A stretch of DNA of 61,698 nt, filler included. It is 11 parts of 11 records of this genome, joined end to end, with 100 filler letters (N's around TTAATTAATTAA, not from the genome) between each part and the next. Parts side by side here need not be neighbours in the genome. Positions count along the whole stretch, not along the records: positions 11,905 to 16,844 come from SRR7504441_20368; 10 more parts are not named here. The stretch is one strand, 5' to 3'. Position numbers and translations under genes: made by a program. Shown here in pieces: positions 8,256 through 51,016 of the stretch. How positions within the stretch are numbered: position 1 is the stretch's first letter; every line of letters begins with the position of its first letter. The notes beneath the pieces are model-generated. The model had not been told where the DNA came from and searched no databases. It saw nothing but the letters and a program-made list of their open reading frames with translations.

Positions 8256-8355
8256 NNNNNNNNNNNNNNNNNNNNNNNNNNNNNNNNNNNNNNNNNNNNT
8301 TAATTAATTAANNNNNNNNNNNNNNNNNNNNNNNNNNNNNNNNNNNNNNNNNNNN
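8256..8355. other. Artificial contig linker
   Basis: N44-TTAATTAATTAA-N44 (stops in six frames). Confidence 0.99.
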
Positions 8356-11804: not shown

Positions 11805-11904
11805 NNNNNNNNNNNNNNNNNNNNNNNNNNNNNNNNNNNNNNNNNNNNTTAATTAATTAANNNNNNNNNNNNNNNNNNNNNNNNNNNNNNNNNNNNNNNN
11901 NNNN
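11805..11904. other. Artificial contig linker
   Basis: N-TTAATTAATTAA-N. Confidence 0.99.
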
Positions 11905-13842
11905 CGTCGAGGGCTGATGAGGATGCTTCATGCAAAGCTGGCAGCTGCGTTCGGGACCTGGCGAGACGAGTTTTCGCATTCCAATCAGGAGAACAGGCTT
12001 ATGCGCATTGTTATCTCTCGGTTTTCTCGTAATAGGCTGTACTCTGCATGGAACAAATGGCGCCTTGACGCGGCGCGGATTAAGGAAGAGCTAAGATCCC
12101 TGCTGGATTACGGGTTTCAATCCTATAGTCGCAAACTCGTGGCTGCGTTTACACGCTGGCTTGAGTTGTTGAGGTCTGGAGAGCTGAATACAGATTCAAA
12201 AGCTTATGCAAAAGCTGTGGCAGTATACGTGCGAAGGGCTCAATCCAAGTCGTTTCAGATTTGGATCTCTTGTACCTCTCAGTTGCAGCATAATGCTGCC
12301 ATGATGCATTGTGCTGTTTTGTTTGCAAATCAGCACACGTGTCTTTCCGTTCTCAACACGTGGTGTGGGGAAAGGGAGCTCTCTAGAACGGATCAGATGC
12401 TGATAAAAAATGCCGCCCAGAGATTTGTCAATCGGATGTCATGTCAAGCTATTGTCTGCTGGAGGGAATACTGCAAGGATCGCAAGTATGCCATGCGCGA
12501 GGAGGTTGTTACAAAAATGCGCAATGCGCTTGCAGCCAAGAAAAGACAAGCGCTGGGAGACTGGAGGCGCGAGGCAGAATGGGCTCGAGTGAGTCAACTT
12601 CAGATACCAAAGCTGTGGGGAACGAGTCAGAAAGCTGCAGCGTTTGTAAAGTGGCAAGAGTCAAGGGACAACAAGGCCCTCATAGCCTCAATGATGCGAG
12701 ATGCAACACTCACATATGATGACTATGCACTTTTGTGCGCCAGTCGTCTCTGGCGCCACATCTCACAATTGCAGGCACATCACTCAGCCTGGTATGGCTA
12801 TGCGAAGCAGCGATGGGACACTCTTGAGCTGGCATCCGCGAATCACGCCTGGCATGAGCATGCAGTACTGCGTGGCAATGGCCGTGCTAGCCACCGCAGG
12901 GCCATCATGAGATATCATCATTCAGAGCTCGTGGCAGGGATGAGTTCATGGATGAGAGACTTTGCGAGGAAACTTGGTGGACACATCTCTCACAAACAAG
13001 CCATATCTTTTTGGGAGTTGGGTGGTATGGTCAGGGCTGTCCGACTGTGGCATCACGATGCGGCGGAAACGATCTACACCAGTCGCCTGACAGCCAGGGC
13101 AAATCATGGAATTGAGTATGCAGCAAAGCACCGTGGAATGCGCAAATGGCTGCTAGCTTCCCGTGAGAGCCGTTCTGGTAATGATCTGCTCAGCCTCTAT
13201 CACGACCGCAAAAGAAAGCAAGTCCACGATTCCATTTTGGAAGTACTAGTGGAGAACTTCGAGGATCTGAAGCGTTCGGAGATGAGAATGTCGCAGGCTT
13301 CGGCGCAATATAGGTTCATGAGCGCCCTGCAAGGTCTGCAGAATTGGAGGAGAGTTCTGCGCGAGAAATCCAGAGAAGACGACTTGTACCTTTGGATCGA
13401 AGCACAGTGCGCACACCGGGACCGGCTGTGGGGTGTGCAGAGGCTCAGGCATGGGTTACAGAAACCAGAACCAGGTGCTGGCGGAATGGTCAGGGGACAA
13501 TTTGATAATACACGAATGAGCTCACAACTTCGACGAAGTCTGGCTCTGTCCGCATGGAAAACTGCAGTGATGGAAAGAAAGTACAAACCGCTCTTGGGTG
13601 AAAACAAGCTGCTTCGCAGGGACAAAAAAGAATTGATCGATCGACTCGGGCAGCAGCTAGCAGACAATGCGGATATGTCTGATGAGTTGAAAAGCTTGAA
13701 CACTGCTCTTCAAGCTGAGAAAAAATGGTCGAAGGGTCTCGTCGATGACCACAATGAGATGGCCGCTAAGCTGGATGCCGCTCAAGAGCAAATTGAGGGA
13801 TTAACGAGGCAACTAGCAGCCGCTAGACGATCTCAAAACTAG
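11905..13842 (+). CDS. Sfi1-like centrin-binding repeat protein with C-terminal coiled coil, 5'-partial
   Basis: Periodic [AF]xxW[RK] motifs (AAFGTWR, SAWNKWR, AAFTRW, AIVCWRE, ALGDWRR, AFVKWQ, ALSAWK). Confidence 0.7.
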   Translation, partial: RRGLMRMLHAKLAAAFGTWRDEFSHSNQENRLMRIVISRFSRNRLYSAWNKWRLDAARIKEELRSLLDYGFQSYSRKLVAAFTRWLELLRSGELNTDSKAYAKAVAVYVRRAQSKSFQIWISCTSQLQHNAAMMHCAVLFANQHTCLSVLNTWCGERELSRTDQMLIKNAAQRFVNRMSCQAIVCWREYCKDRKYAMREEVVTKMRNALAAKKRQALGDWRREAEWARVSQLQIPKLWGTSQKAAAFVKWQESRDNKALIASMMRDATLTYDDYALLCASRLWRHISQLQAHHSAWYGYAKQRWDTLELASANHAWHEHAVLRGNGRASHRRAIMRYHHSELVAGMSSWMRDFARKLGGHISHKQAISFWELGGMVRAVRLWHHDAAETIYTSRLTARANHGIEYAAKHRGMRKWLLASRESRSGNDLLSLYHDRKRKQVHDSILEVLVENFEDLKRSEMRMSQASAQYRFMSALQGLQNWRRVLREKSREDDLYLWIEAQCAHRDRLWGVQRLRHGLQKPEPGAGGMVRGQFDNTRMSSQLRRSLALSAWKTAVMERKYKPLLGENKLLRRDKKELIDRLGQQLADNADMSDELKSLNTALQAEKKWSKGLVDDHNEMAAKLDAAQEQIEGLTRQLAAARRSQN

Positions 13843-14297
13843 AATCAATTGAGCAACACATGCTCAGATCTACTACAGATCTACTACAATGTCCACAGAT
13901 GATGCATCTCAGACGGCTCTTGATTAATTACTTGTATAATGTGTGAACCATGCGGGAACTATGCGGGAACGTCTAGGAACTTCGGCAGTTCCAACGTTAC
14001 TACAAAACAACTTTAAAAACACAATCATAATAGCGTGAACAATTAAAACGTACTAACACTAAGCTATTTGTTTTAAGCTGATTTAGGCTTGGCAAGACTG
14101 CTGGTTTGGCTAGGTATTGGCTAGGTTTGGCGTAGCTTCTTGTGTACTGTACACTTGCGACACTTAAGTCTACAGCATGATGAAGTGTCATGCACAATTA
14201 TGATTAAATTATGATCAGCTATGTGACCCAAATAAACTTAAGTTAGTTGAACTCATGGTCGAGCGTCGCACACTGCGCCTTTTTGACATGCGTCCGG

Positions 14298-15056
14298 TTA
14301 CGTCCGGTGGTTGTCTGAACTTATGGCGCATCTCCAATCTCTGCCTAGTTCAAACCTACAGCACAATAAACAATCATGCACATGACAGTTTCATGCACGT
14401 GAACGTTGGAAGCCCTCCTAATTATGCAGGCACGCAGGCACAACCATATGCAATTAAAATACCCGTTAGCCTTGAGCTGGAAGTCAACCATCGCCTGATG
14501 CAGCTCAGCGTGACTACTCATGACAAAAGGCCCATGCTGGCAAATGGGCTTGTCGTGGGGGCTAGACGCAGCTAGGACGAATTCGCATCCATCAGCATCA
14601 GCAGTCACAGCTACTCCGTCCCCGGTTTTGTCAAACGTCACAAGATGACCAGCGCTGGCAACAGTATCGTCGTTGCCAAATTTAGCGGCACCAGCGAGTA
14701 CATAACACAGAACATTGTGACGAGAATTGACCTGCGTGCAGAAGATTAAATCAAGCAACCGGATTTGTTGGCGACTACCGGTTGGTCGAGCTTGCTCGAA
14801 GGCTCCATCCTGCAGAAAATGTGAGGCCGGGTAGACTATCGGCGCAAGCGGTACCTGACGTGCAACAGTGTACAGTCGTTTACCGTCTCCACTGGGGCCG
14901 TCGCTCGACACGACTCGCCACAAAGCACCAACACTTGAACCCCATCCTTGATGCCCCTCGTGTGCGGATTGGCCTCGACCACCTGCGGCCGGCGCTCGAA
15001 TGCGCGCGAGCCCGGAGCAAGACCTGCTCGGCGCGGCGACTGTCCAGCCGGGGCAT
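14298..15056 (-). CDS. Pirin-family protein, apparently C-terminal cupin half only, spliced
   Basis: DGVQVLVLCGESCRATAPVET...NVLCYVLAG...KPICQHGPFVMSSHAELHQAMVDFQLKANG|FELGRDW. Confidence 0.75.
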
Positions 15057-15632
15057 CCTACCCCATGCACCGCCGGCTTCCCGGCTTGTTGTTGTTGCAG
15101 TTGTTGTACATGTTGTGGAACAGTACGTACCTGGTACTTGTAGTGCGTCCTAAAAGAAAAGGGGTGGAACAATGTCTCTCGTGGTTTTTGTTGGGTCACT
15201 CCGCGATTGGTGGCGTCGTAGATTCCCCAATCCCATAGCGAGTTGTTCGGCACGGTCAGTCCAGGGATGTTCAGTTGGCCGCGTGCGGGCACAAGACTCA
15301 TTTCCACTCGCGCTTCCTTTTGGATGAGCGCAGGTCCATCGCCACGTGCTCGTTGTCATTCAGTTCAACAAGCATCCGTGCGTCGAACCCCCTCGGCGCG
15401 ACCCAAAACGGCTCGCGCCACCGGAGACCCCACTCCTTGAAGTTCACCTTCGGACTCGTCGAGCGGCTCGCCCCTCCTCATCTTTGATCTTTCCTTGGAA
15501 ACTTGTTGCCTCGCTGTAACAGACATTAAAAAATAAAGCCAATCCGGTGGCTGGCACCGGATCTCACACGCCGTGGAAGGGTCACAGGCGCCGGAGTACG
15601 GCGCCGCGAGTGGACGCTCTGGGCCTCTCTGA

Positions 15633-16844
15633 ATGGCGCCCGTCTTTATCTCGCTCCGATTCGGCGAAGTACGCGACCGACCGGCCGGTGTTGCTCATCG
15701 GGGGGCAGGCCATCGAGGCCGCCAAATCCCTGCGCGCCGAGCTACTGAGCAAGTACGGTATCGAGGTGAGCCGTAGGCTGGAATACGGGCCGAAGTACGG
15801 GCAGGCGCTGCTGTGCGAGGTGCCCGAGGGCCAGAACATCAAAGAGGTGGTGGTTGATGGGCTGGACGGCTGCGAGCTCGCCGTGCTCCTGGGCACCAAG
15901 ACATACGGGACAAAGACCGTGAGCTTCTCCACCTACGAGGAGATGGAGTTCGTGATCGCGGAGGGCAAGCCGTTCTTCCTGGTCAAAATGTGCGACCGCT
16001 TCGAGCAGGCTGCCACTCGGTTCAACTTCAGGGACTCCATGAGGTGCCTCCGCCCGCGCTCAACCTGCTGACTGCGCGCAGTTACTTCCAGTGGATCCCC
16101 CAAACGCGCGCGGAGACGCCGCCAGCAGCATTGCTCGCTAATATTGCCTCGAGGCTCTCTCGGTGCCAGAGGGCCATGCAGCCGCCACCCGTGGTTGAGC
16201 CACCCGCCCCAGCTGTCGGGCGAGGGGAGTACGCAAATCTGAACGAGCATTTCGATATCATATTGAGCTACCGGGGTGAAGTCGAGCAACAGATGCTAAA
16301 ACTGGCCTCGGCCCTTCAATCCCAGTTCGGGGCTCGCGCGGTGGTACACGGACTGATGTGCAGGCCCGGGCAACCGTGGGACGCCGGCTACTTTACTTGG
16401 AACAAGCACGCTAAGGTGCGGCTCATGCTGATCTCTGAGGGGTATTTCCAAAGCGCCGCGTGCAAGCTCGAATTCAAGGCCGCCTGCAACCAAGTGCCCG
16501 ATCCGAGGGCCACCGACCAAGCGGTGATACCGGTGATACTCAGGCGGCTGCCATGGGAGTACCCGGCTGCCGATCCTCACTGCCCCGAGGACCTCAAAGT
16601 TCAGCTCGATCAGCGCAACTGCTTCCCCCGGCCCGAGGCCGGCGGGCTGATCGATAACTCCGGCCAGCTCAAGCCAGAGCTGATGCAATCGCTGCTCAAG
16701 CTCATACAAAGTTACGGCCTGGCGATCCAAGAAGACCCAGCCTGTGACAGCCCGTCTTCTGGCGCCGGACCGGACAAGCAACTCGCACCAGCGAAGGAGC
16801 CGTCCGCCCCGACCGAGCGGCCGTCTGCGCCAGATAAGCAGCCA
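15633..16844 (+). CDS. Tandem TIR-domain protein, 3 introns, 3'-partial
   Basis: TIR1 MAPVFISLRFGE|AIEAAKSL...LAVLLGTKTYG...STYEEMEF...KPFFLV; TIR2 FDIILSYR...LMLISEGYFQSAACKLEFKAA...VIPVIL. Introns 15669-15708, 15766-15804, 16044-16081. Confidence 0.85.
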
Positions 16845-16944
16845 NNNNNNNNNNNNNNNNNNNNNNNNNNNNNNNNNNNNNNNNNNNNTTAATTAATTAA
16901 NNNNNNNNNNNNNNNNNNNNNNNNNNNNNNNNNNNNNNNNNNNN
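16845..16944. other. Artificial contig linker
   Basis: N-TTAATTAATTAA-N. Confidence 0.99.
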
Positions 16945-19128
16945 CGGGGGGGGGGGGGGGGCCAGCCCAGATCAGGTGCCGCTGGCCGCTCTGGAGCAGT
17001 TTGAGATCCGGGGCGGGCTGTTCGGGCCGGGGCTCGTGTGGTGCGCTCCGGCCAGGCCGGGGCGAGCCTCGGCAGGTGGGACGCGGTCACAGCGACTGTG
17101 TCTGAAAGCCCAACCGGCGAGCAAAGGCTGATTGTCGACGTCTCGCACCGGCGCGGCATGCACGCCGTGGTGTACCTGGCTGCCCAGGCGAGTGCTCGGG
17201 CGCGCTCGGCTCACCCGGTGACAGCACGCCGCGGCGCTAAGCGACCTGCGCGAGCGGTTTGTCTTCCCTGCCAGGCGTGTGGGACTGTTCGCTTTCGCGC
17301 ATCGGTGCCGGCTGCGCCACAGCCCGGGCGAGCTGGGGGGCAGGCCGCATATGGTGACAGTGGCCGGGATGCTCGACCGTCAAGCCGACTGGCGCCGGCA
17401 GGTGGGTAGCGGCGCCCGGGTCGGTGCCAGTGACGGCAGGCGATCGGGCATCGTTGGCGGGTGAGCACAGTGAACAGTATTTACCAGCTGTGCGCCAGCT
17501 ACCCCACGGTGCCGGCCGATCCACTGCCAGCCCAGTCGGGGGCAGTTACTAGCGGTCCCTGCCGAGATCACAGACAGGGTGCTGCTCGCGGCGGCTGAAT
17601 TCAGGACGATGGGTCGCATCCCGACCTTGAGCTGGGCCGATAAGGCTACTGGGGCCGGGCTGTGCAGATCCTCCCAGCCTAAGGTGGCTGCCCAGCCTCG
17701 GCCGCGCTGAGCCGCTGCAGTCGGGGCTGCTGGGCCGGGCGTCGGATCACGACGAGCGAATGCTGGAGGAGATTGGAAAGACTGGAAGTGGCAGCCTGAT
17801 GATCGCAGACTGTCGCCCGCAGGTGAACGCGTACGCCAACGCGATGGCCGGCGGTGAGTCGAGCCTACGCGCGGAAGGGCCGTGAGCCGGCCGCAGGTGG
17901 GTACGAGACTGAGGCCAACTACCCTCACGCAGAGCTCGAATTCTTGGAAATTCCAAACATTCACGCGGTCAGAGCTGCGCACCATAAGCTGCGGCAAGCG
18001 GCTGGGGCCCCGGAGCCGCCGCTGACGCTCGAGGCGGGCGAGTGGACCGGTCTGGTGGGCACAATACTGCTTGCGGCGACACGGGTGGTGCACGCACTGC
18101 ATGTGGCGCAGCGAAGCGTGCTGGTGCACTGCAGCGACGGCTGGGACAGAACCCCTCAGGCAGCGTGCGGCTGGGCGGGCTGACGGGCCGGCAGATAGTT
18201 GGGCTGGCGATGATAATGCTCGACCCGTTCTACAGGACGACCCTCGGGTTCTGCTCACTTGTGCAGAACGAGTGGGTGGTGATGGGACACCAATTCTGGC
18301 GCCGGACTGGACCGGGCTGCCCAGATGTGACCTGGCCCGGCCGGCAAGCCAAAGCGTTTGGCAGGCGGACGACTCGCAGCGCTGCCCGATATTGCTCCAG
18401 TGGCTTGATTGCGTGTGGCAACTGGTACAGCAGAACGGGGCACAATTCGAGTACGGCGAGAGGTTGCTGCTGCTGCTGTATCAAGGGTTTGAGGCTGGCC
18501 AATTCGGTACGTTCCTGTACGACAGCCAGCGGGAGGCCACAGCTATGCAGCAGCCAGGTCAGCTTGCCGGCCAGCAGCAGCTGAGTCGGAGGCAGCCCCA
18601 CCCATCTGGGACTGGCTGCTGTCAGAGCACCCACCCTCACACGAGCCACAGGATTTGGGCACAGGCAAGCCAAAGCGTTCGGCAAGCCGCTAACTAGGCT
18701 CTCAGTAATCTCGGTCGACCCATCGGCAGTGCGGGTCTGGGCAGCGATGCATCTAGAGCGGTGCGGCCGCAAGCCAGGCCAGGGCAAATGGTGGCAGGTG
18801 GGGGGTGGCGCTGGCTGCGGTGCCACCCGAGGTCGCAACAAATAGCCAGGGGCTGCTCCAATCGATGGCTGACAACGGCACCGCGGTGCTTGGCAACGGT
18901 GTCAATCAGCTGTCAGCGATCGGGCAACATCTGGGTTCATTCCTCCAAAAGGTTCACACAATCTACCAAGCAGGAGAGCCGCAACCGTCGTTGCATTTGC
19001 CGTTTGAGGAGGGTCCTTTGAATAGTGTCAAGAACCAAGGTGAAAACCCTACATGTACAGACGGATATACAGATGGACCTGAAGCGGGGAACACTAGTAT
19101 GCATGCACAGCCAGTTACCTTACAATGA
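16945..19128 (+). CDS. Myotubularin-related phosphoinositide 3-phosphatase, spliced, 5'-partial
   Basis: Catalytic VLVHCSDGWDRT; IADCRPQVNAYAN, GGYETEANY, IPNIHAVR, LDPFYRT, EWVVMGHQF, QWLDCVWQL, FGTFLYD. Confidence 0.93.
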
Positions 19129-28962: not shown

Positions 28963-30105
28963 TTACATCTCGTAGCGGTTGACAGCCTGTACCGCCAGTC
29001 AGTAACGTCCCAAGGCGAGGAAAATGTCACCTTCTCCTTCATGCTATCTTCGTGTACTAAGTATCCGATTTTGATGTTATCGGCTAGTTGCAGGGTCTGG
29101 CGTATCGTTTGGCCGACCCGGCTGCACAGGCGCTCGTGAGCGGGCCGGCCTCTGGCGCCGGCTCACCGGACTGCATCTTCGTTGTTGGCGTTCCTGGTCC
29201 AGATCGCAATCTTGCTCTGGCTCTTCCTTAAGCTCGCGACTGCACCACAAATCTGGGGCCAGAGACTGAGCCAGTCGAGCCCGGCTGCTGGGAACCTCGT
29301 CGGTATCCTCAAAGCTCTCACCGATCAGCGCGAGCAGAATGTGAAGCCAGTACTCGTCTATTACCTCCCGACGGCCCTGCGTCGCAGTCAGCCTACTGAG
29401 GCTGGCGGCCGGGCGTGCCTTGGGGAACACGACCACCCACTTGCCGCCGTGCCTATTGTTCTCGTCCTCCCACATAGGGTTAATGTGGTCGGTGAATAAA
29501 TGGTAGTTGCTCCCTGCAGACACTCTGAGCACACAGCGCGACAGAGGTGGGACGCCCACCGTTCTGAAGACGGCTTGGAGGCATAATGTTGTTGAAGGTG
29601 CACCAGAACTCCTCGACAGTGTTGAAGGTGATGATCCTCTTAATGTTCTCGAACCAGTTCTTCGGGTTCGACCGGCCGCCTGCCGCAAGCTGTGACAGGC
29701 AGGCTGGCTGGCCGCTCGCCTGGGTTGTCGTACCACATGGTCCAGGCCCGTTGCAGCGGGTGGAGCGAAGAGAATTCGGGGCTGGCCGTCTCGCCCGGGG
29801 CTGCCTCACTGGGCGCCGCTTCGACCGCTGCGGCCGGCTCCTCGGCCGCGGGCTCGGCAGCAGCTTCGTCGGCCGCGGGCTCTTCGACTGCGGCAGGCTC
29901 CTCCGCAGCCTCTGCGGCCGGGGCTTCGGCCTCTGTAACCGGGGTTGTCAGCCGGCGGCGGGGCGGAATGGCAGTGTAACAGCACGGGGCACGGGCACAG
30001 CAAGAGGGGCATGAACCGACCTTCGGCCGGTGCGTCTTGTGGCTCCGCGCAAGCGGTCTGATCCGCTGGGGGCGCCGCGGCGGGCTCCTCGATCGAATCA
30101 GACAT
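28963..30105 (-). CDS. eIF4E: Translation initiation factor eIF4E, spliced
   Basis: WTMWYD, FNTVEEFW, NYHLF...INPMWEDENN.HGGKW, W...LLALIGE, ICGAV...KIAIWT, C-terminal AVNRYEM*. Confidence 0.96.
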
Positions 30106-46549: not shown

Positions 46550-49500
46550 TTAATAGTCATCAGAGTCTTCCGCCGCCATCATAGCATAGGCAAGTGCCTG
46601 TTGATCCGGAGGAAGCGATTGAAGCAATGCTTCCCTCGAATCCTTTGGTGGGGGCGGCTTGTTGGTAGCAGTATCAACTGTGACTGGGCTTGACAGTTCA
46701 CTGTTGTCGCTGGCAGGCTTACCATCTGCTACACCAATCAAGCCAAACACCGAGCTTCCCATATCGAGTAGTCCGCCCATGAGCCCGCTTGAGTCCTCTG
46801 CCGCCGCTGCTTTAGGTTCAGGTGCCTGCACCTGACCGGATGAGGCATCTGTAGAGCAGGGCTGTGGCTCTCGTTCTGCTGCGGGTACCTCCGGCACTTT
46901 CTGTGGCGGTTGAGTTGCACTGTCATCACTTTCTGTTGCACTAATCAGTCCAAACATTGAGCTGCCCATATCGAACAGGGCCCCCGCGAGTGTGGGTGCC
47001 TCCGGTAAGCTACACGGCTCGATTTCGACTGCCAAGGGCTTGCCCGGTTCGATCAGTTGCATGAGTTGCTCACCATCAGACTCGGCTATCATTAAGCAGC
47101 AGCCCTCATAGGCCTTTGGAGTGCCTGGCATGTGGAAAGGCCACTCGTCGCCCTTCTGAAGCACAACCACACCAAGCGCACCAGCAGCGGCCGCAGCTTC
47201 TGCCTTTGCCTGGAAAGTAATACGGCCTCGCTCACACAAAGCGATTGCTCCCTTGAGCTTGTCAGCGTTTGAGAGCTGGAAGCCATCAAGCGGTTCCATT
47301 GGTACCAGTGGCGCCTCCAACTTGCTCCTCTTGCTGAATTCAGACCAAGTCCCAATGAATTCAGCTCCCTTGACCACCACGCGAGCCCATTCCTTTTCTG
47401 GGGCAGAATCATCAGCACCACTCCTGCCACTGACGAGCTGCCTCGCCCACTCCAGTCGCAACCGCTGCTTGGCATGTCCACGGCTCAACTGACACCATGG
47501 CCGCTTTGTCGCCGCAGTTCTCACTACACTCGTCCAGTTGCCTTGCGCTAGTCGATCTGTCATCCTCCTCAATGATCTCGCAGCTAATGCTCGCATTCTT
47601 GTACCGCTCAAAGGTGGTGATATGTTGCTCAGTACAATAAGCGTACGAGCCAGGTTAGGGATCGCAACCGCTTGATTGTCGAGTTCGTTAATCGCTTCGA
47701 GGTTTTGTTCTGCGGACTTGAGCTGAGCCTGCACGCCGAGCATTGGCCGCGAGGCTTGTGCGTAAACTGCATTCACCAGTTCAGCCATCTCACTGTACAT
47801 TGTCTTGAGCTGGGAAGCATGTCCTGGCTCCAAGGTGGCATCCAAGATCCACACCGCTTGGCTAGCTGGACCAGTAGCGGGCTGGAGGAGACTTGCCTCT
47901 GGGACTACTGCAGTAGGAGGCAAGACCACAAAGTCTTGCGACTGTACTGCCATCTGGAAGCAGTGTCGCTCGCCTAGCTTTTCCATACCGAGCTGGATCA
48001 ACCTGTTTGCTGAGAGTGTGTGGAAAGACTGAAACTTGACCCCACTTTTGTGGAACGTGTGAATGTGATGCCTGAGTCCTATCCTCTCAAGGAAAGCTGC
48101 TGCCTCGTCATCTTTGGGAGAAGCAACATTGTCATTATGCAACTTGCCCACAAGAACCAGCGCTACAATTGCTTGCTGGTCCAAGTCGAGGATGTACTCT
48201 CTTGCAAATGCACGCGCAGCAGAGGCTGGCACTGTCTGACCTCCCACAGTGGGCAGACGGAGTACGAGGACAACTGTGCCGACACTAGGCAGCTGAAGCT
48301 GTGTCTTGTCTTCAGGTGCAAGCACAAGCCGCCCAACCACACCAGAACCTGGCCAATACGGCGCTCCAGGCAGCACGTATCCGAGCACTGTTTGCTGCAT
48401 TCCTTGAGTCGACTGCCAGTCTGGATAGAGCATGCAGATTGGTACCACATCGCTGGAGTCAGCCAAGTCCTCCGTACCCACCAGGCTGACTTCTTCTTGC
48501 TCAGCTGGTACAATCGGCGAGTCAGGCTGCACATCAATCGGTCCTACTGTAACTGATGGCACTGGGTTGCTCACTTCCGTCAGGCAACGCAACGTGGCCG
48601 CAATACAACGCAGTCGATATGCCTTTTGCTTGTGTACAGCAATGTTCCTTTCAAGGAAGACTAGCTTAGCTATTGCTTCGAGCCTCACCTCTTTGCTGGC
48701 TGCACTGCCGATTTTTGCTCGGAGTTTTCTCGCCTGTGCAATCTTATGCATGCCTAATAGCATAAACCGAGCCTTGAGTGCCCCTAGCCGATCTCGCCGA
48801 GGGTTACCAACTGGGATGTCGTCCTCAGGGGCTCGTGCTAACACATCTGCACCTGTCTCGATACAGCAATCCAATGTCCCCAGCACATCTAACTGTTGCT
48901 GCAGTGCCAGCCCTGATTGATAATCCACCATGATGCATGGAATGTCCACCTTATTGCCAGTGTCTGCACCAGGCATCACAAAAGGCCAGTCGCCCTCTTC
49001 ACTCTGCACCACTACCATTGCCCTGCAGCCACACTCTGCCAGTTGCATGGCTTTCTGAGTAAATGTTACCCCTCCGCCTCGCCTACAAAGACCTATGCAC
49101 CCGATAAGCTCTTTCCCATTGGAGATCGATGGGCTGCACGTATCAGGATCGGCCATTTTGAGCATGCCACGCAATGGTTGCACATCAGGCCCAAACGATG
49201 CAGTCATTCCAAGAATATACTTGTCGTCATAGCGCAGCCAGCAACCTTGTGCTTTTGCAACCACCGATAGCTCAGACCAGCTCTGTTGGGCCACAGAAAG
49301 TGCAGACTGAGGAGACGATTGGATCATGGACAGTGCAATGCTCCCCAGGTCAGCCATTCCATCTGTCACGGCCCCAGTCAGGGAAGGCCCGCTCATTGCA
49401 AGATCGAGATCCGACTCCTCAAATCTGGCAGCCACTTTGTTCAGCGTTGCCAACCCCCGCACCACTGCACGAGGGAGCAACTGGCTCCATGGCCGCCTAC

Positions 49501-51016
49501 TGAGTACTTCCACCAGCTGGGCCAGGTTCACCTCTTGGCCCCGGGCATAAGGGTGGTTGCCGGCCATCCGAGCAATAACAGCAGCAAACCTCGCCTTCTC
49601 TTGGTGCCGCCAATTTCCAAGCCCACTGTGACTGCAGCATATTTGAGCGATTCTGGCAGCTGCAGAGCTGACATGAACTCCTGGGGGCTCTCTGCCCAGC
49701 TTACTTGGTGGGTTGATTGAGCTACACAAATCCACCACAGAACGGACAGTGGAGTTGTAATGCTGCTTCCTAATACAGGAAAGCTCTCCCTCCAAGGATG
49801 TGAGAGTAGAGGTCAGATTAATAGAACCAGGATCTGGATGATCAACTAAAAGGCAAGGGATTGTGATTTGCTCTGGAGACAATGCTGTGAATGTTGCTGC
49901 TCTTTCTCTAAATGCTACCAGATTTGATTCCTCATTGTCCAAAGCTGGATTGTCTATTATCCCCAACGAGGCCAGCTCCTGAGGTGTAAGCGTTTGGAAC
50001 ATGCCCAGCTTAATCTTGTGGTGCAGCACTAGTCCCACGCAGCGCTCACGGTCATTTTCTCTGAGAAACATCTCCTCAGGGCTATAGGACCGCGCCTCTA
50101 GCCGCCTCGGCCAATCTGCTGCTCTCTGAGAGCTCAGCACTACAACTCCAACAGCCCCAGCACACTGCAGTCTATAGCACTGAGTGGTGGCAGGGATGCA
50201 GCATTCTTGGCACACTACAATCTTGCCTTCAAACACAGCATCCTGGATGGGCTCAGACACTGTAAGTGGACTAGCTAGTGCAAAAGTCGCTCGCAGAGGT
50301 TTGCTGAGTGGCTCTCCGAATCCAGCAAGAGTTGCATCCAGCAACATTGGTCCAAGCCAGACCTGGGCATCGAACGTCTGGCCACCAATCTCATCGGACT
50401 GGCTACTGAAGAGTGTTGGCATCTCAAGCTTTGGGAGCCAATCCGAGTCGATCGGGCCAGCCCCACTCCCATGGGCGTTCCCGCTTTGTCGGATTGCGTT
50501 AGCAAGCCTGAGACTGTCAGCTTCCAGCAGATCAGCTGCAGCCAACACATCGTGCTGTTGTTGTGCTAGGATTTCTTCCAGCACTGCCTCCATCTCTGAC
50601 TCGGACCAAGGCTTCATCTCGGCTATGTATTGATCAGTGAAGTCTGCGCATGGACATTCCAGGCCGAGTTCTCGTAATGCCGCATGAAACTCACGGGTTG
50701 AACTAGATCTGGCCTTGATTCGACCAATATACCTGCGAAAATCACTGCAGCACAGCAGGCCATTGTCGTCGATCCCAACAAAATCCATTAGCTCCACCCG
50801 ACGAGATGAGGTTGCAAAGCATGTTTCTGAGAATCTTGCTGTCTCTTCGCCGCCTGAAGCCTTGCTAAACATCTCTTCAGCACAACGCTGCTCGCAAACA
50901 GAAAGCACCTTGCAGATGCTAGGGTGAAATGCTCGCCTCAGCAATTCTTCCATCCGACTGCTCAGCCCTTGCTGCCCAGTCTCAGGGCTGTGCCCCTGAG
51001 ACTGTTCAAGCGCGTT
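46550..51016 (-). CDS. Large multi-PA-domain protein with EF-hand-like and SAM domains, 5'-partial, intronless
   Basis: PA motifs GCIGLCRRGGGVTFTQKA...GCRAMVVV...IPCIMV and GAIALCERGRITFQAKA...GALGVVV; SAM FLERIGL..HIHTF...LIQLGMEKLGER; frame open to the contig edge. Confidence 0.85.
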   Translation of the reverse strand, partial: NALEQSQGHSPETGQQGLSSRMEELLRRAFHPSICKVLSVCEQRCAEEMFSKASGGEETARFSETCFATSSRRVELMDFVGIDDNGLLCCSDFRRYIGRIKARSSSTREFHAALRELGLECPCADFTDQYIAEMKPWSESEMEAVLEEILAQQQHDVLAAADLLEADSLRLANAIRQSGNAHGSGAGPIDSDWLPKLEMPTLFSSQSDEIGGQTFDAQVWLGPMLLDATLAGFGEPLSKPLRATFALASPLTVSEPIQDAVFEGKIVVCQECCIPATTQCYRLQCAGAVGVVVLSSQRAADWPRRLEARSYSPEEMFLRENDRERCVGLVLHHKIKLGMFQTLTPQELASLGIIDNPALDNEESNLVAFRERAATFTALSPEQITIPCLLVDHPDPGSINLTSTLTSLEGELSCIRKQHYNSTVRSVVDLCSSINPPSKLGREPPGVHVSSAAARIAQICCSHSGLGNWRHQEKARFAAVIARMAGNHPYARGQEVNLAQLVEVLSRRPWSQLLPRAVVRGLATLNKVAARFEESDLDLAMSGPSLTGAVTDGMADLGSIALSMIQSSPQSALSVAQQSWSELSVVAKAQGCWLRYDDKYILGMTASFGPDVQPLRGMLKMADPDTCSPSISNGKELIGCIGLCRRGGGVTFTQKAMQLAECGCRAMVVVQSEEGDWPFVMPGADTGNKVDIPCIMVDYQSGLALQQQLDVLGTLDCCIETGADVLARAPEDDIPVGNPRRDRLGALKARFMLLGMHKIAQARKLRAKIGSAASKEVRLEAIAKLVFLERNIAVHKQKAYRLRCIAATLRCLTEVSNPVPSVTVGPIDVQPDSPIVPAEQEEVSLVGTEDLADSSDVVPICMLYPDWQSTQGMQQTVLGYVLPGAPYWPGSGVVGRLVLAPEDKTQLQLPSVGTVVLVLRLPTVGGQTVPASAARAFAREYILDLDQQAIVALVLVGKLHNDNVASPKDDEAAAFLERIGLRHHIHTFHKSGVKFQSFHTLSANRLIQLGMEKLGERHCFQMAVQSQDFVVLPPTAVVPEASLLQPATGPASQAVWILDATLEPGHASQLKTMYSEMAELVNAVYAQASRPMLGVQAQLKSAEQNLEAINELDNQAVAIPNLARTLIVLSNISPPLSGTRMRALAARSLRRMTDRLAQGNWTSVVRTAATKRPWCQLSRGHAKQRLRLEWARQLVSGRSGADDSAPEKEWARVVVKGAEFIGTWSEFSKRSKLEAPLVPMEPLDGFQLSNADKLKGAIALCERGRITFQAKAEAAAAAGALGVVVLQKGDEWPFHMPGTPKAYEGCCLMIAESDGEQLMQLIEPGKPLAVEIEPCSLPEAPTLAGALFDMGSSMFGLISATESDDSATQPPQKVPEVPAAEREPQPCSTDASSGQVQAPEPKAAAAEDSSGLMGGLLDMGSSVFGLIGVADGKPASDNSELSSPVTVDTATNKPPPPKDSREALLQSLPPDQQALAYAMMAAEDSDDY

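Follow-up and report, generated by a model that had tools for sequence, protein, structure and literature searches.

TIR enzymes are an immune currency common to bacteria, plants, and animals. In SARM1, the plant TNLs, ThsB, and AbTir, packing of TIR domains activates the enzyme, and a glutamate (Glu) assists the cleavage of nicotinamide adenine dinucleotide (NAD+). Here we describe a gene that occupies positions 15633 to 16844 of a 61,698-base stretch of DNA (the window, by which we mean the whole stretch that was analyzed) and encodes two predicted TIR domains in tandem, TIR1 and TIR2, each with a Glu at the position that corresponds, by alignment, to the catalytic one. At least one of the two may be an NAD+-cleaving enzyme.

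Several described systems come close to this gene. A eukaryote-wide atlas counts 7,432 TIR domains in 13 clades, six of which are eukaryote only and uncharacterized, and the same paper describes TirE of Dictyostelium discoideum, with two diverged tandem TIRs that Pfam misses (bioRxiv 10.64898/2026.04.30.722052). By this description TirE, a protist protein whose tandem TIRs include one or more that Pfam models overlook, is like the gene studied here, from which it differs in having RCC1 repeats and in coming from an amoebozoan rather than a marine protist. Tandem TIRs are also reported in mollusc Tolls (PMC4929906). In another preprint, choanoflagellate, amoebozoan, cryptophyte, and oomycete TIRs make cyclic ADP-ribose (cADPR) in a Glu-dependent manner, a green-alga TIR makes 3'cADPR, and one TIR clade has members in green algae, dinoflagellates, thraustochytrids, and haptophytes (bioRxiv 10.64898/2026.04.20.719644). 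The TIRs of Gephyrocapsa huxleyi and those of the Chlamydomonas 3'cADPR clade, again likened by description, share with our gene a marine or algal protist origin and a conserved catalytic Glu; in G. huxleyi, the expression of 15 TIR genes shifts over the course of virus infection and recovery (PMC12489294). Both Glu-bearing protist TIRs and diverged tandem TIRs are already in print, in papers of 2025 and 2026, and assays of protist TIRs only began in those years. The locus extends this known biology and overturns none of it; by itself it is sound but rather unremarkable beside the large number of protist TIR genes already described.

Gene structure and expression

The interval 15633-16844 holds the 5' portion of a single gene, with four exons, three introns, and a 365-codon open frame that is cut at 16844. 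An in-frame TGA stands immediately before the start ATG at 15633. TIR1, residues 3 to 147 of the spliced product, is encoded in three pieces that lie in three different frames and, as judged with a TIR1-family profile built from 91 members, in the correct order. The spliced product scored 200.1 bits with this profile, as one domain over amino acids (aa) 3-147; the same profile gave 184.0 bits when intron 2 was kept and 134.9 bits for the lone open reading frame (ORF). A homologue, P0002 (252 aa, 73% identity), follows the spliced product colinearly over all three junctions. Taken as a bare ORF piece that lacks strand betaA, TIR1 matched nothing in Pfam at E ≤ 1 and no sequence in PDB at E ≤ 10. 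The original prediction held that splicing reveals an N-terminal TIR hidden from the ORF track, and the RNA joint described below, the colinearity with P0002, and the higher profile score of the spliced product all bear this out.

Two studies show intron 2 spliced. Metatranscriptome contig X5 has a joint 15763->15803 at which 39 nucleotides (nt) with GT..AG ends are skipped, and an oligo-dT RNA contig from the other study, X1, begins at 15803 and carries a loose end identical to the last letters of exon 2. The RNA joint covers intron 2 only, introns 1 and 3 being placed without one; the X5 contig that begins at 16080 carries 5 unplaced letters, too short for an intron 3 joint. Further RNA contigs cover 16080-16225, 16090-16240, 16276-16426, and 16366-16516, and the presence of oligo-dT RNA contigs over both TIR domains indicates that the gene is expressed. 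Eleven strain differences separate the window from the RNA contigs: all eight exonic ones are synonymous third-position changes, and the remaining three fall within either the 5' leader or intron 2. In P0001, an unspliced ORF call that is 98% identical to the window, the two residue differences both fall within the 13 codons read through intron 2. The gene is seen in marine (meta)transcriptome contigs; the run-label habitat shares are 0.06-0.14, and we make no wider habitat claim.

Two features of the RNA data weigh against this gene model. Run X14 contributed contigs 15565-15715 and 15717-15867, which are colinear with the DNA and leave introns 1 and 2 unspliced, and both domains are never found on one RNA contig, 16241-16275 being bridged by none. 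These are the observations that would favor a gene-model artefact, in which TIR1 and TIR2 belong to two neighboring genes or the introns are unreal, an explanation that we consider highly improbable. The last strand and helix of TIR1 share an uninterrupted frame and exon with TIR2 (16082-16844), RNA contigs lie over 16080-16240 and 16276-16516, intron 2 is spliced in two studies, splicing gains 65 bits in the profile score, and candidate introns of equally tiny size are present in other genes of the window. The X14 contigs could be DNA carry-over or pre-mRNA. We conclude that 15633-16844 is the 5' part of a single nuclear gene, transcribed and spliced, from a marine protist, and it provides a clean, RNA-supported example of how prokaryote-style ORF calling breaks such a gene into meaningless pieces.

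Short candidate introns were also noted at 18327-18364 (+, 38 nt) in a myotubularin gene and at ~29524-29558 (-, 35 nt) in an eIF4E gene, each at a Pfam frame jump. Such tiny introns, 35-40 nt long, seem to be usual in this organism.

The TIR1 family

A phmmer search of 1.84 billion representatives returned at least 437 relatives of TIR1 at E ≤ 1e-3 and 199 at E ≤ 1e-10, the 437 being representatives of clusters at 50% identity. Nearly all of these alignments begin at the first residue past intron 2. The Pfam scan of the family covered 58 of the 150 listed relatives. TIR_2 (PF13676) was matched at E ≤ 0.01 in 45 of them (in P0028 the match is to the second domain), in every case beginning with profile position 1, which falls on the F-I-S-x-R box; eight members were without TIR_2, and in the other five it was not among the best 25 families listed. 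The 28-bit gathering cut-off for TIR_2 was reached by 6 of the 58, and the closest homologue of the window's product, P0002, scored 16.8 bits; the window pieces without betaA drew no family, at E ≤ 1 in one scan and at E ≤ 1e-4 in another, and in these pieces TIR1 stays below the Pfam cut-off. The locus points to a very large TIR subfamily, mostly missed by Pfam, in which a domain with an invariant Glu has been shuffled among many modules. The partner domains in the scanned members include LRR, WD40, MORN, ARM, Sel1, Ank, Roc-COR, Ras, PDZ, and beta-helix, among others. More than one TIR-like domain per chain is found in the TIR1-type proteins P0068, P0079, and P0112 (two to three domains) and in P0028, which has a second TIR-like stretch, so TIR doubling recurs in the family. 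Pattern-based scans for the TIR1 signature found no TIR1-type relative in the IMG/VR viral contigs and no relative with the signature in 185,579 prokaryotic species genomes, the latter being weak evidence of absence.

The TIR fold of the family is predicted from a model of P0002. An AlphaFold2 model made with a 91-sequence alignment had a predicted confidence score (pLDDT) of >90 over residues 1-150, and its elements follow the order betaA, alphaA, betaB, alphaB, betaC, alphaC, betaD, alphaD, betaE, alphaE. In PDB, Foldseek returned 84 matches at E ≤ 1e-3, with TIR-STING, SARM1/TIR-1, RUN1, AbTir, and L6 foremost; the top TIR matches ranged from 8e-6 to 5e-4, and a few flavodoxin-like non-TIR entries ranked lower. 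With VIA-align, 50 of 50 among the matches listed were TIR entries, MyD88 included, with Z scores of 12.3-15.3 over 120-140 residues. By these models, the TIR1 family has a TIR fold, and the flavodoxin-like fold on which the original prediction depends is predicted for TIR1, through P0002, by both comparisons.

Conservation was counted over 155 TIR1 domain instances, drawn from the 150 listed relatives and the window, three proteins having two to three copies. One Glu and one Gly are invariant (155/155 each). The betaA Ser is present in 127/127 and the betaA Arg in 123/128, and the signature after betaD includes a Lys (150/155) and a Cys (152/154), with a Trp in 148/149. In the profile alignment, the invariant Glu stands opposite ROQ1 E86, with a 4-residue insertion before alphaC and a posterior of ~0.8, and in the P0002 model it lies in the first turn of predicted helix alphaC (residues 76-85). 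ROQ1 E86A is listed among catalytic-Glu mutants together with L6 E135A, RUN1 E100A, RPP1 E158A, and others in one recent preprint (bioRxiv 10.64898/2026.02.03.703613).

Among solved structures, the TIR1-family profile matched Roq1 (E 2e-4), then RPV1 (4e-3), RUN1 (9e-3), and SARM1, all of them NADase TIRs. The plant TNL TIRs (ROQ1, RUN1/RPV1, L6, and RPS4) are the best PDB sequence matches of the profile; they have the betaA F-x-S-x-R box in common with TIR1 and fit the P0002 model with Z scores of 12-14. TIR1 is unlike them in its 4-residue insertion before alphaC and in sequence, at 12-15% identity. Over the K-P-F-F-L-V-K-M-C stretch and the invariant Trp of TIR1, the alignments with Roq1, RPV1, and RUN1 stop short or mismatch, and in contrast to the plant TNLs our gene, as far as the contig end, shows no NB-ARC or LRR. 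SARM1 residues 561-700 superimpose on residues 4-143 of the P0002 model with a Z score of 14.2 and a root-mean-square deviation of 2.9 Å over 127 aligned residues, and the N-terminal half of TIR1 aligns with SARM1/TIR-1 by sequence (E 0.014). The architecture is not that of SARM1, in which an ARM domain and tandem SAM domains precede the TIR: SARM1 has one C-terminal TIR, whereas our gene has two N-terminal ones, of which TIR1 starts at residue 3, and Pfam detected no SAM or ARM domain in the 365 residues before the contig end. Matches to bacterial families were weak. TIR1-type members scored ~25 bits with ThcB4 against a cut-off of 220, and TIR2 had weak local matches to ThsB1 (19.7 bits, PADLOC) and to FxsC_Nterm (20.9 bits against a cut-off of 130); all of these scores are far below the curated cut-offs of the ThsB and NCBIfam TIR-like families (130-220 bits).

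TIR2 and the proposed function

TIR2 scored 39.9 bits with Pfam TIR_2 (PF13676), against a cut-off of 28, over aa 59-162 of the frame 16083-16844, and 41.6 bits on a second cut; by sequence, it is a member of this family. A word-based search found no TIR2 relative near its length and one among longer proteins. Five relatives, 45-63% identical, were found in total, and all five exceed the TIR_2 cut-off (29.7-39.7 bits). P0151, from a EukProt transcriptome, has a partial WD40 followed by the TIR and a tail; P0161 combines a kinesin motor, a protein kinase, and then the TIR, an architecture of which we met no description, no literature search having been aimed at it; the others are P0156, P0165, and P0190. 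Two weak 43-residue matches of TIR2 in viral contigs were rejected because no convincing ORF contains them.

The Cys and Glu of the C-K-L-E-F motif are invariant in the six-sequence TIR2 alignment. This Glu aligns with that of S-C-W-C-Q-Y-E-L in the chicken TLR15 TIR (the C-x-x-E-[LF] position) and stands opposite a Gln of MyD88. The original prediction had a second, quite different TIR following the first, with Glu at the alphaC position in both. The Pfam assignment and the absence of any phmmer cross-match between TIR1 and TIR2 agree with the former (an hhalign comparison gave a marginal probability of 6-41%), and the alignments of the TIR1 Glu with ROQ1 E86 and of the TIR2 Glu with that of the W-C-x-x-E-L motif of TLR15 agree with the latter. 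As aligned, both TIRs have a family-invariant Glu at or next to the NADase-type catalytic position in alphaC. None of the 150 listed TIR1-type relatives carries a TIR2-type domain, so the pairing of TIR1 with TIR2 is without a second example among these proteins.

On this basis we propose, by analogy with known TIR enzymes, that one or both of these domains may act as NAD+-cleaving enzymes, a proposal whose prospects we regard as evenly balanced. Such a domain would consume NAD+ upon activation by head-to-tail TIR packing, as in SARM1, the plant TIRs, and ThsB, with the Glu aiding cleavage of the nicotinamide-ribose bond. The output would be ADP-ribose (ADPR) or a cyclic ADPR isomer acting as a messenger, or else depletion of NAD+, and the two unlike TIRs could serve in cis as each other's packing partner. 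An immune role for the gene would be a reasonable idea in marine protists, given the altered expression of 15 TIR genes in G. huxleyi over virus infection and recovery. Should the TIR1 family prove active, it would offer promising ground in a search for new NAD-derived messengers and antiviral signaling in marine plankton.

Several points weigh against this proposal. In a published activity survey, only 4 of 29 Glu-bearing TIRs from unicellular eukaryotes were active, and TLR2, IL-1R9, and IL-1R10 keep the Glu and are inactive (bioRxiv 10.64898/2026.04.20.719644). The presence of the Glu is therefore a weak predictor of NADase activity, and the case for an enzyme is weakened to that extent. 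The fold of TIR1 rests on P0002, a 73%-identical homologue, and not on the window's own product. For TIR2, an AlphaFold2 model made from six sequences had a mean pLDDT of 46 and was unusable; in Foldseek its best rows were TIRs (RUN1, 4.4e-3), with none at E ≤ 1e-3. The alignment of the Glu residues is not uniform either: in a low-confidence hhalign comparison of the two profiles, the TIR2 Glu falls opposite a variable TIR1 position two residues past the invariant Glu, which conflicts with the ROQ1 alignment. The window's TIR1 has Glu at both positions, of which it is likely that only the invariant one matters. Finally, the partner domains of the TIR1 family (WD40, MORN, ARM, PDZ, Ras/Roc, and Ank) are general signaling modules and not specifically immune.

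A rival explanation is a scaffold-only adaptor, in which both TIRs would be pure interaction modules, like those of MyD88, MAL, and most TLRs. They would seed a signaling assembly together with the cell's other TIR proteins, and the part of the Glu would be a structural one or a vestige. This possibility is a serious one, though we lean toward thinking it unlikely. It would account for the fact that the nearest solved sequence matches of TIR2 are scaffold TIRs (TLR15, E 0.014; MyD88, E 0.12; and IL-1RAcP), for the shuffling of the TIR1 family with many interaction modules, and for the 25 of 29 Glu-bearing TIRs of unicellular eukaryotes that yielded no product in the same survey (bioRxiv 10.64898/2026.04.20.719644). 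However, retention of the Glu in 155/155 TIR1-type and 6/6 TIR2-type sequences, through divergence to ~30% identity, is difficult to account for unless the residue takes part in chemistry; the TIR1 profile ranks the NADase TIRs (Roq1, RPV1, RUN1, and SARM1) above scaffold TIRs; and MyD88 itself carries Gln at the Glu position.

It is also conceivable that a single TIR is catalytic and a degenerate partner restrains it or packs against it, making a self-contained regulatory unit. That TIR1 and TIR2 come from unrelated subfamilies, as the hhalign and phmmer results suggest, would fit such an arrangement, as would the recurrence of tandem copies in the TIR1 family (P0068, P0079, and P0112, with the second TIR-like stretch of P0028) and the two diverged tandem TIRs described for Dictyostelium TirE (bioRxiv 10.64898/2026.04.30.722052). 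Yet neither TIR looks degenerate, because both keep the Glu and the betaA Ser-x-Arg box, and we consider this explanation unlikely.

A bolder version of the enzymatic proposal can be put forward, which we regard as speculative and quite unlikely to hold in full. The TIR1-type domains would form a large eukaryote-only clade, mostly missed by Pfam, marked by the F-I-S-x-R box, the 4-residue insertion before alphaC, the invariant Glu, K-P-F-F-L-V-K-M-C, and the invariant Trp. From its additional invariant residues (Lys, Cys, and Trp) the clade would derive its own chemistry or product. In our gene such a domain would be hard-wired in cis to a TIR from a different clade, the two making up an obligate hetero-TIR active site, and the protein would be a self-sufficient two-TIR signaling enzyme with no need of a homo-oligomer.

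Features, C terminus, and contig setting

Table 1. Features of the tandem-TIR gene and of the window, in window coordinates
Feature	Positions	Strand	Basis or remark
Exon 1: start codon and TIR1 betaA (F-I-S-L-R-F box; encodes M-A-P-V-FISLRF-G-E)	15633..15668	+	TIR1-family profile positions 23-35
Intron 1, 40 nt, GT..AG	15669..15708	+	joins betaA in frame with alphaA; P0002 colinear
Exon 2: TIR1 helix alphaA	15709..15765	+	P0002 alignment, TIR1 profile
Intron 2, 39 nt, in frame, GT..AG	15766..15804	+	RNA joint; family alignments resume directly after
Exon 3: TIR1 betaB to alphaD with the invariant Glu	15805..16043	+	phmmer; profile positions 50-130
TIR1 Glu codon, E77, middle Glu of Y-E-E-M-E-F, catalytic-equivalent candidate	15940..15942	+	155/155; opposite ROQ1 E86
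Intron 3, 38 nt, GT..AG, phase 2	16044..16081	+	frame join gives family betaE/alphaE (S-Y-F-Q-W...)
Exon 4, up to contig end	16082..16844+	+	uninterrupted frame
TIR1 betaE and alphaE, start of exon 4	16082..16190	+	profile positions 124-163; equivalent to helix 132-145 of P0002 model
Pro-rich linker between the TIR domains	16191..16250	+	translation; RNA contigs 16080-16225 and 16090-16240
TIR2 domain, F-D-I-I-L-S-Y-R box to last conserved helix	16251..16712	+	Pfam TIR_2
TIR2 Glu codon, E241, in C-K-L-E-F, catalytic-equivalent candidate	16470..16472	+	6/6 subfamily sequences
Pro/Ala/Ser-rich tail, cut by contig end	16713..16844	+	composition; linker N-run from 16845
Linkers between contigs	8256-8355, 11805-11904, 16845-16944, and seven more		N44-TTAATTAATTAA-N44

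The original prediction described a Pro-rich stretch that runs off the contig and placed sensor domains beyond it. The stretch is there: the last 37 residues, up to 16844, include 9 Pro, 6 Ala, and 5 Ser. The sensor domains were a guess, for P0002 ends in an acidic tail, and in the TIR2 relatives the other domains are N-terminal. A conserved helical module of ~60 residues was observed behind a TIR and a low-complexity linker in eight TIR1-type proteins (P0005, P0010, P0014, P0016, P0022, P0025, P0041, and P0099) and in the TIR2-type P0165, and is a possible candidate for what follows beyond the contig end. The idea that this module is SAM-like was dropped, since none of the nine tail-bearing proteins had a Pfam SAM match at E ≤ 0.5; another TIR1 member, P0009, has a sub-threshold SAM_1 match (E 0.006; 17.3 bits against a cut-off of 23). 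A search of JGI metagenomes for an extension of the contig or for relatives gave 56 pattern matches and no relative.

The window consists of 11 contigs of 3.5-8 kb joined by the linkers listed in Table 1, and because these are separate contigs, genes on either side of a linker are not genomic neighbors. Its genes are eukaryotic (an ABC transporter, ChAPs, myotubularin, eIF4E, and GH38, among others), with a G+C content of ~50-70%. No further TIR was found in the window, either among the 145 ORFs of ≥128 aa that were scanned or in a six-frame scan with the TIR1 and TIR2 profiles.

The TIR gene lies on the 4.9-kb contig 11905-16844, together with two other genes. Upstream, at 11905-13839 (+), is an open frame of 645 codons that continues past the contig's 5' end; it encodes helical repeats with a recurring aromatic/Trp-Arg/Lys pattern and a coiled-coil-like stretch at the end, and it matched no Pfam family at E ≤ 0.1. 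Its repeats may be akin to centrin-binding Sfi1-type repeats. At 14348-15355 (-), a pirin-like gene (Pirin_C, 62.7 bits) is arranged head to head with the TIR gene, with ~280 nt of intergenic sequence. Neither of the two looks linked to the TIR gene. The next contig opens at 16945-16962 with a run of ~16 G residues that has the look of a contig-end artefact of sequencing or assembly. Farther along the window, at 46553-51016 (-), an uninterrupted frame of 1,488 codons combines two PA-domain stretches with a SAM domain, an unusual combination.

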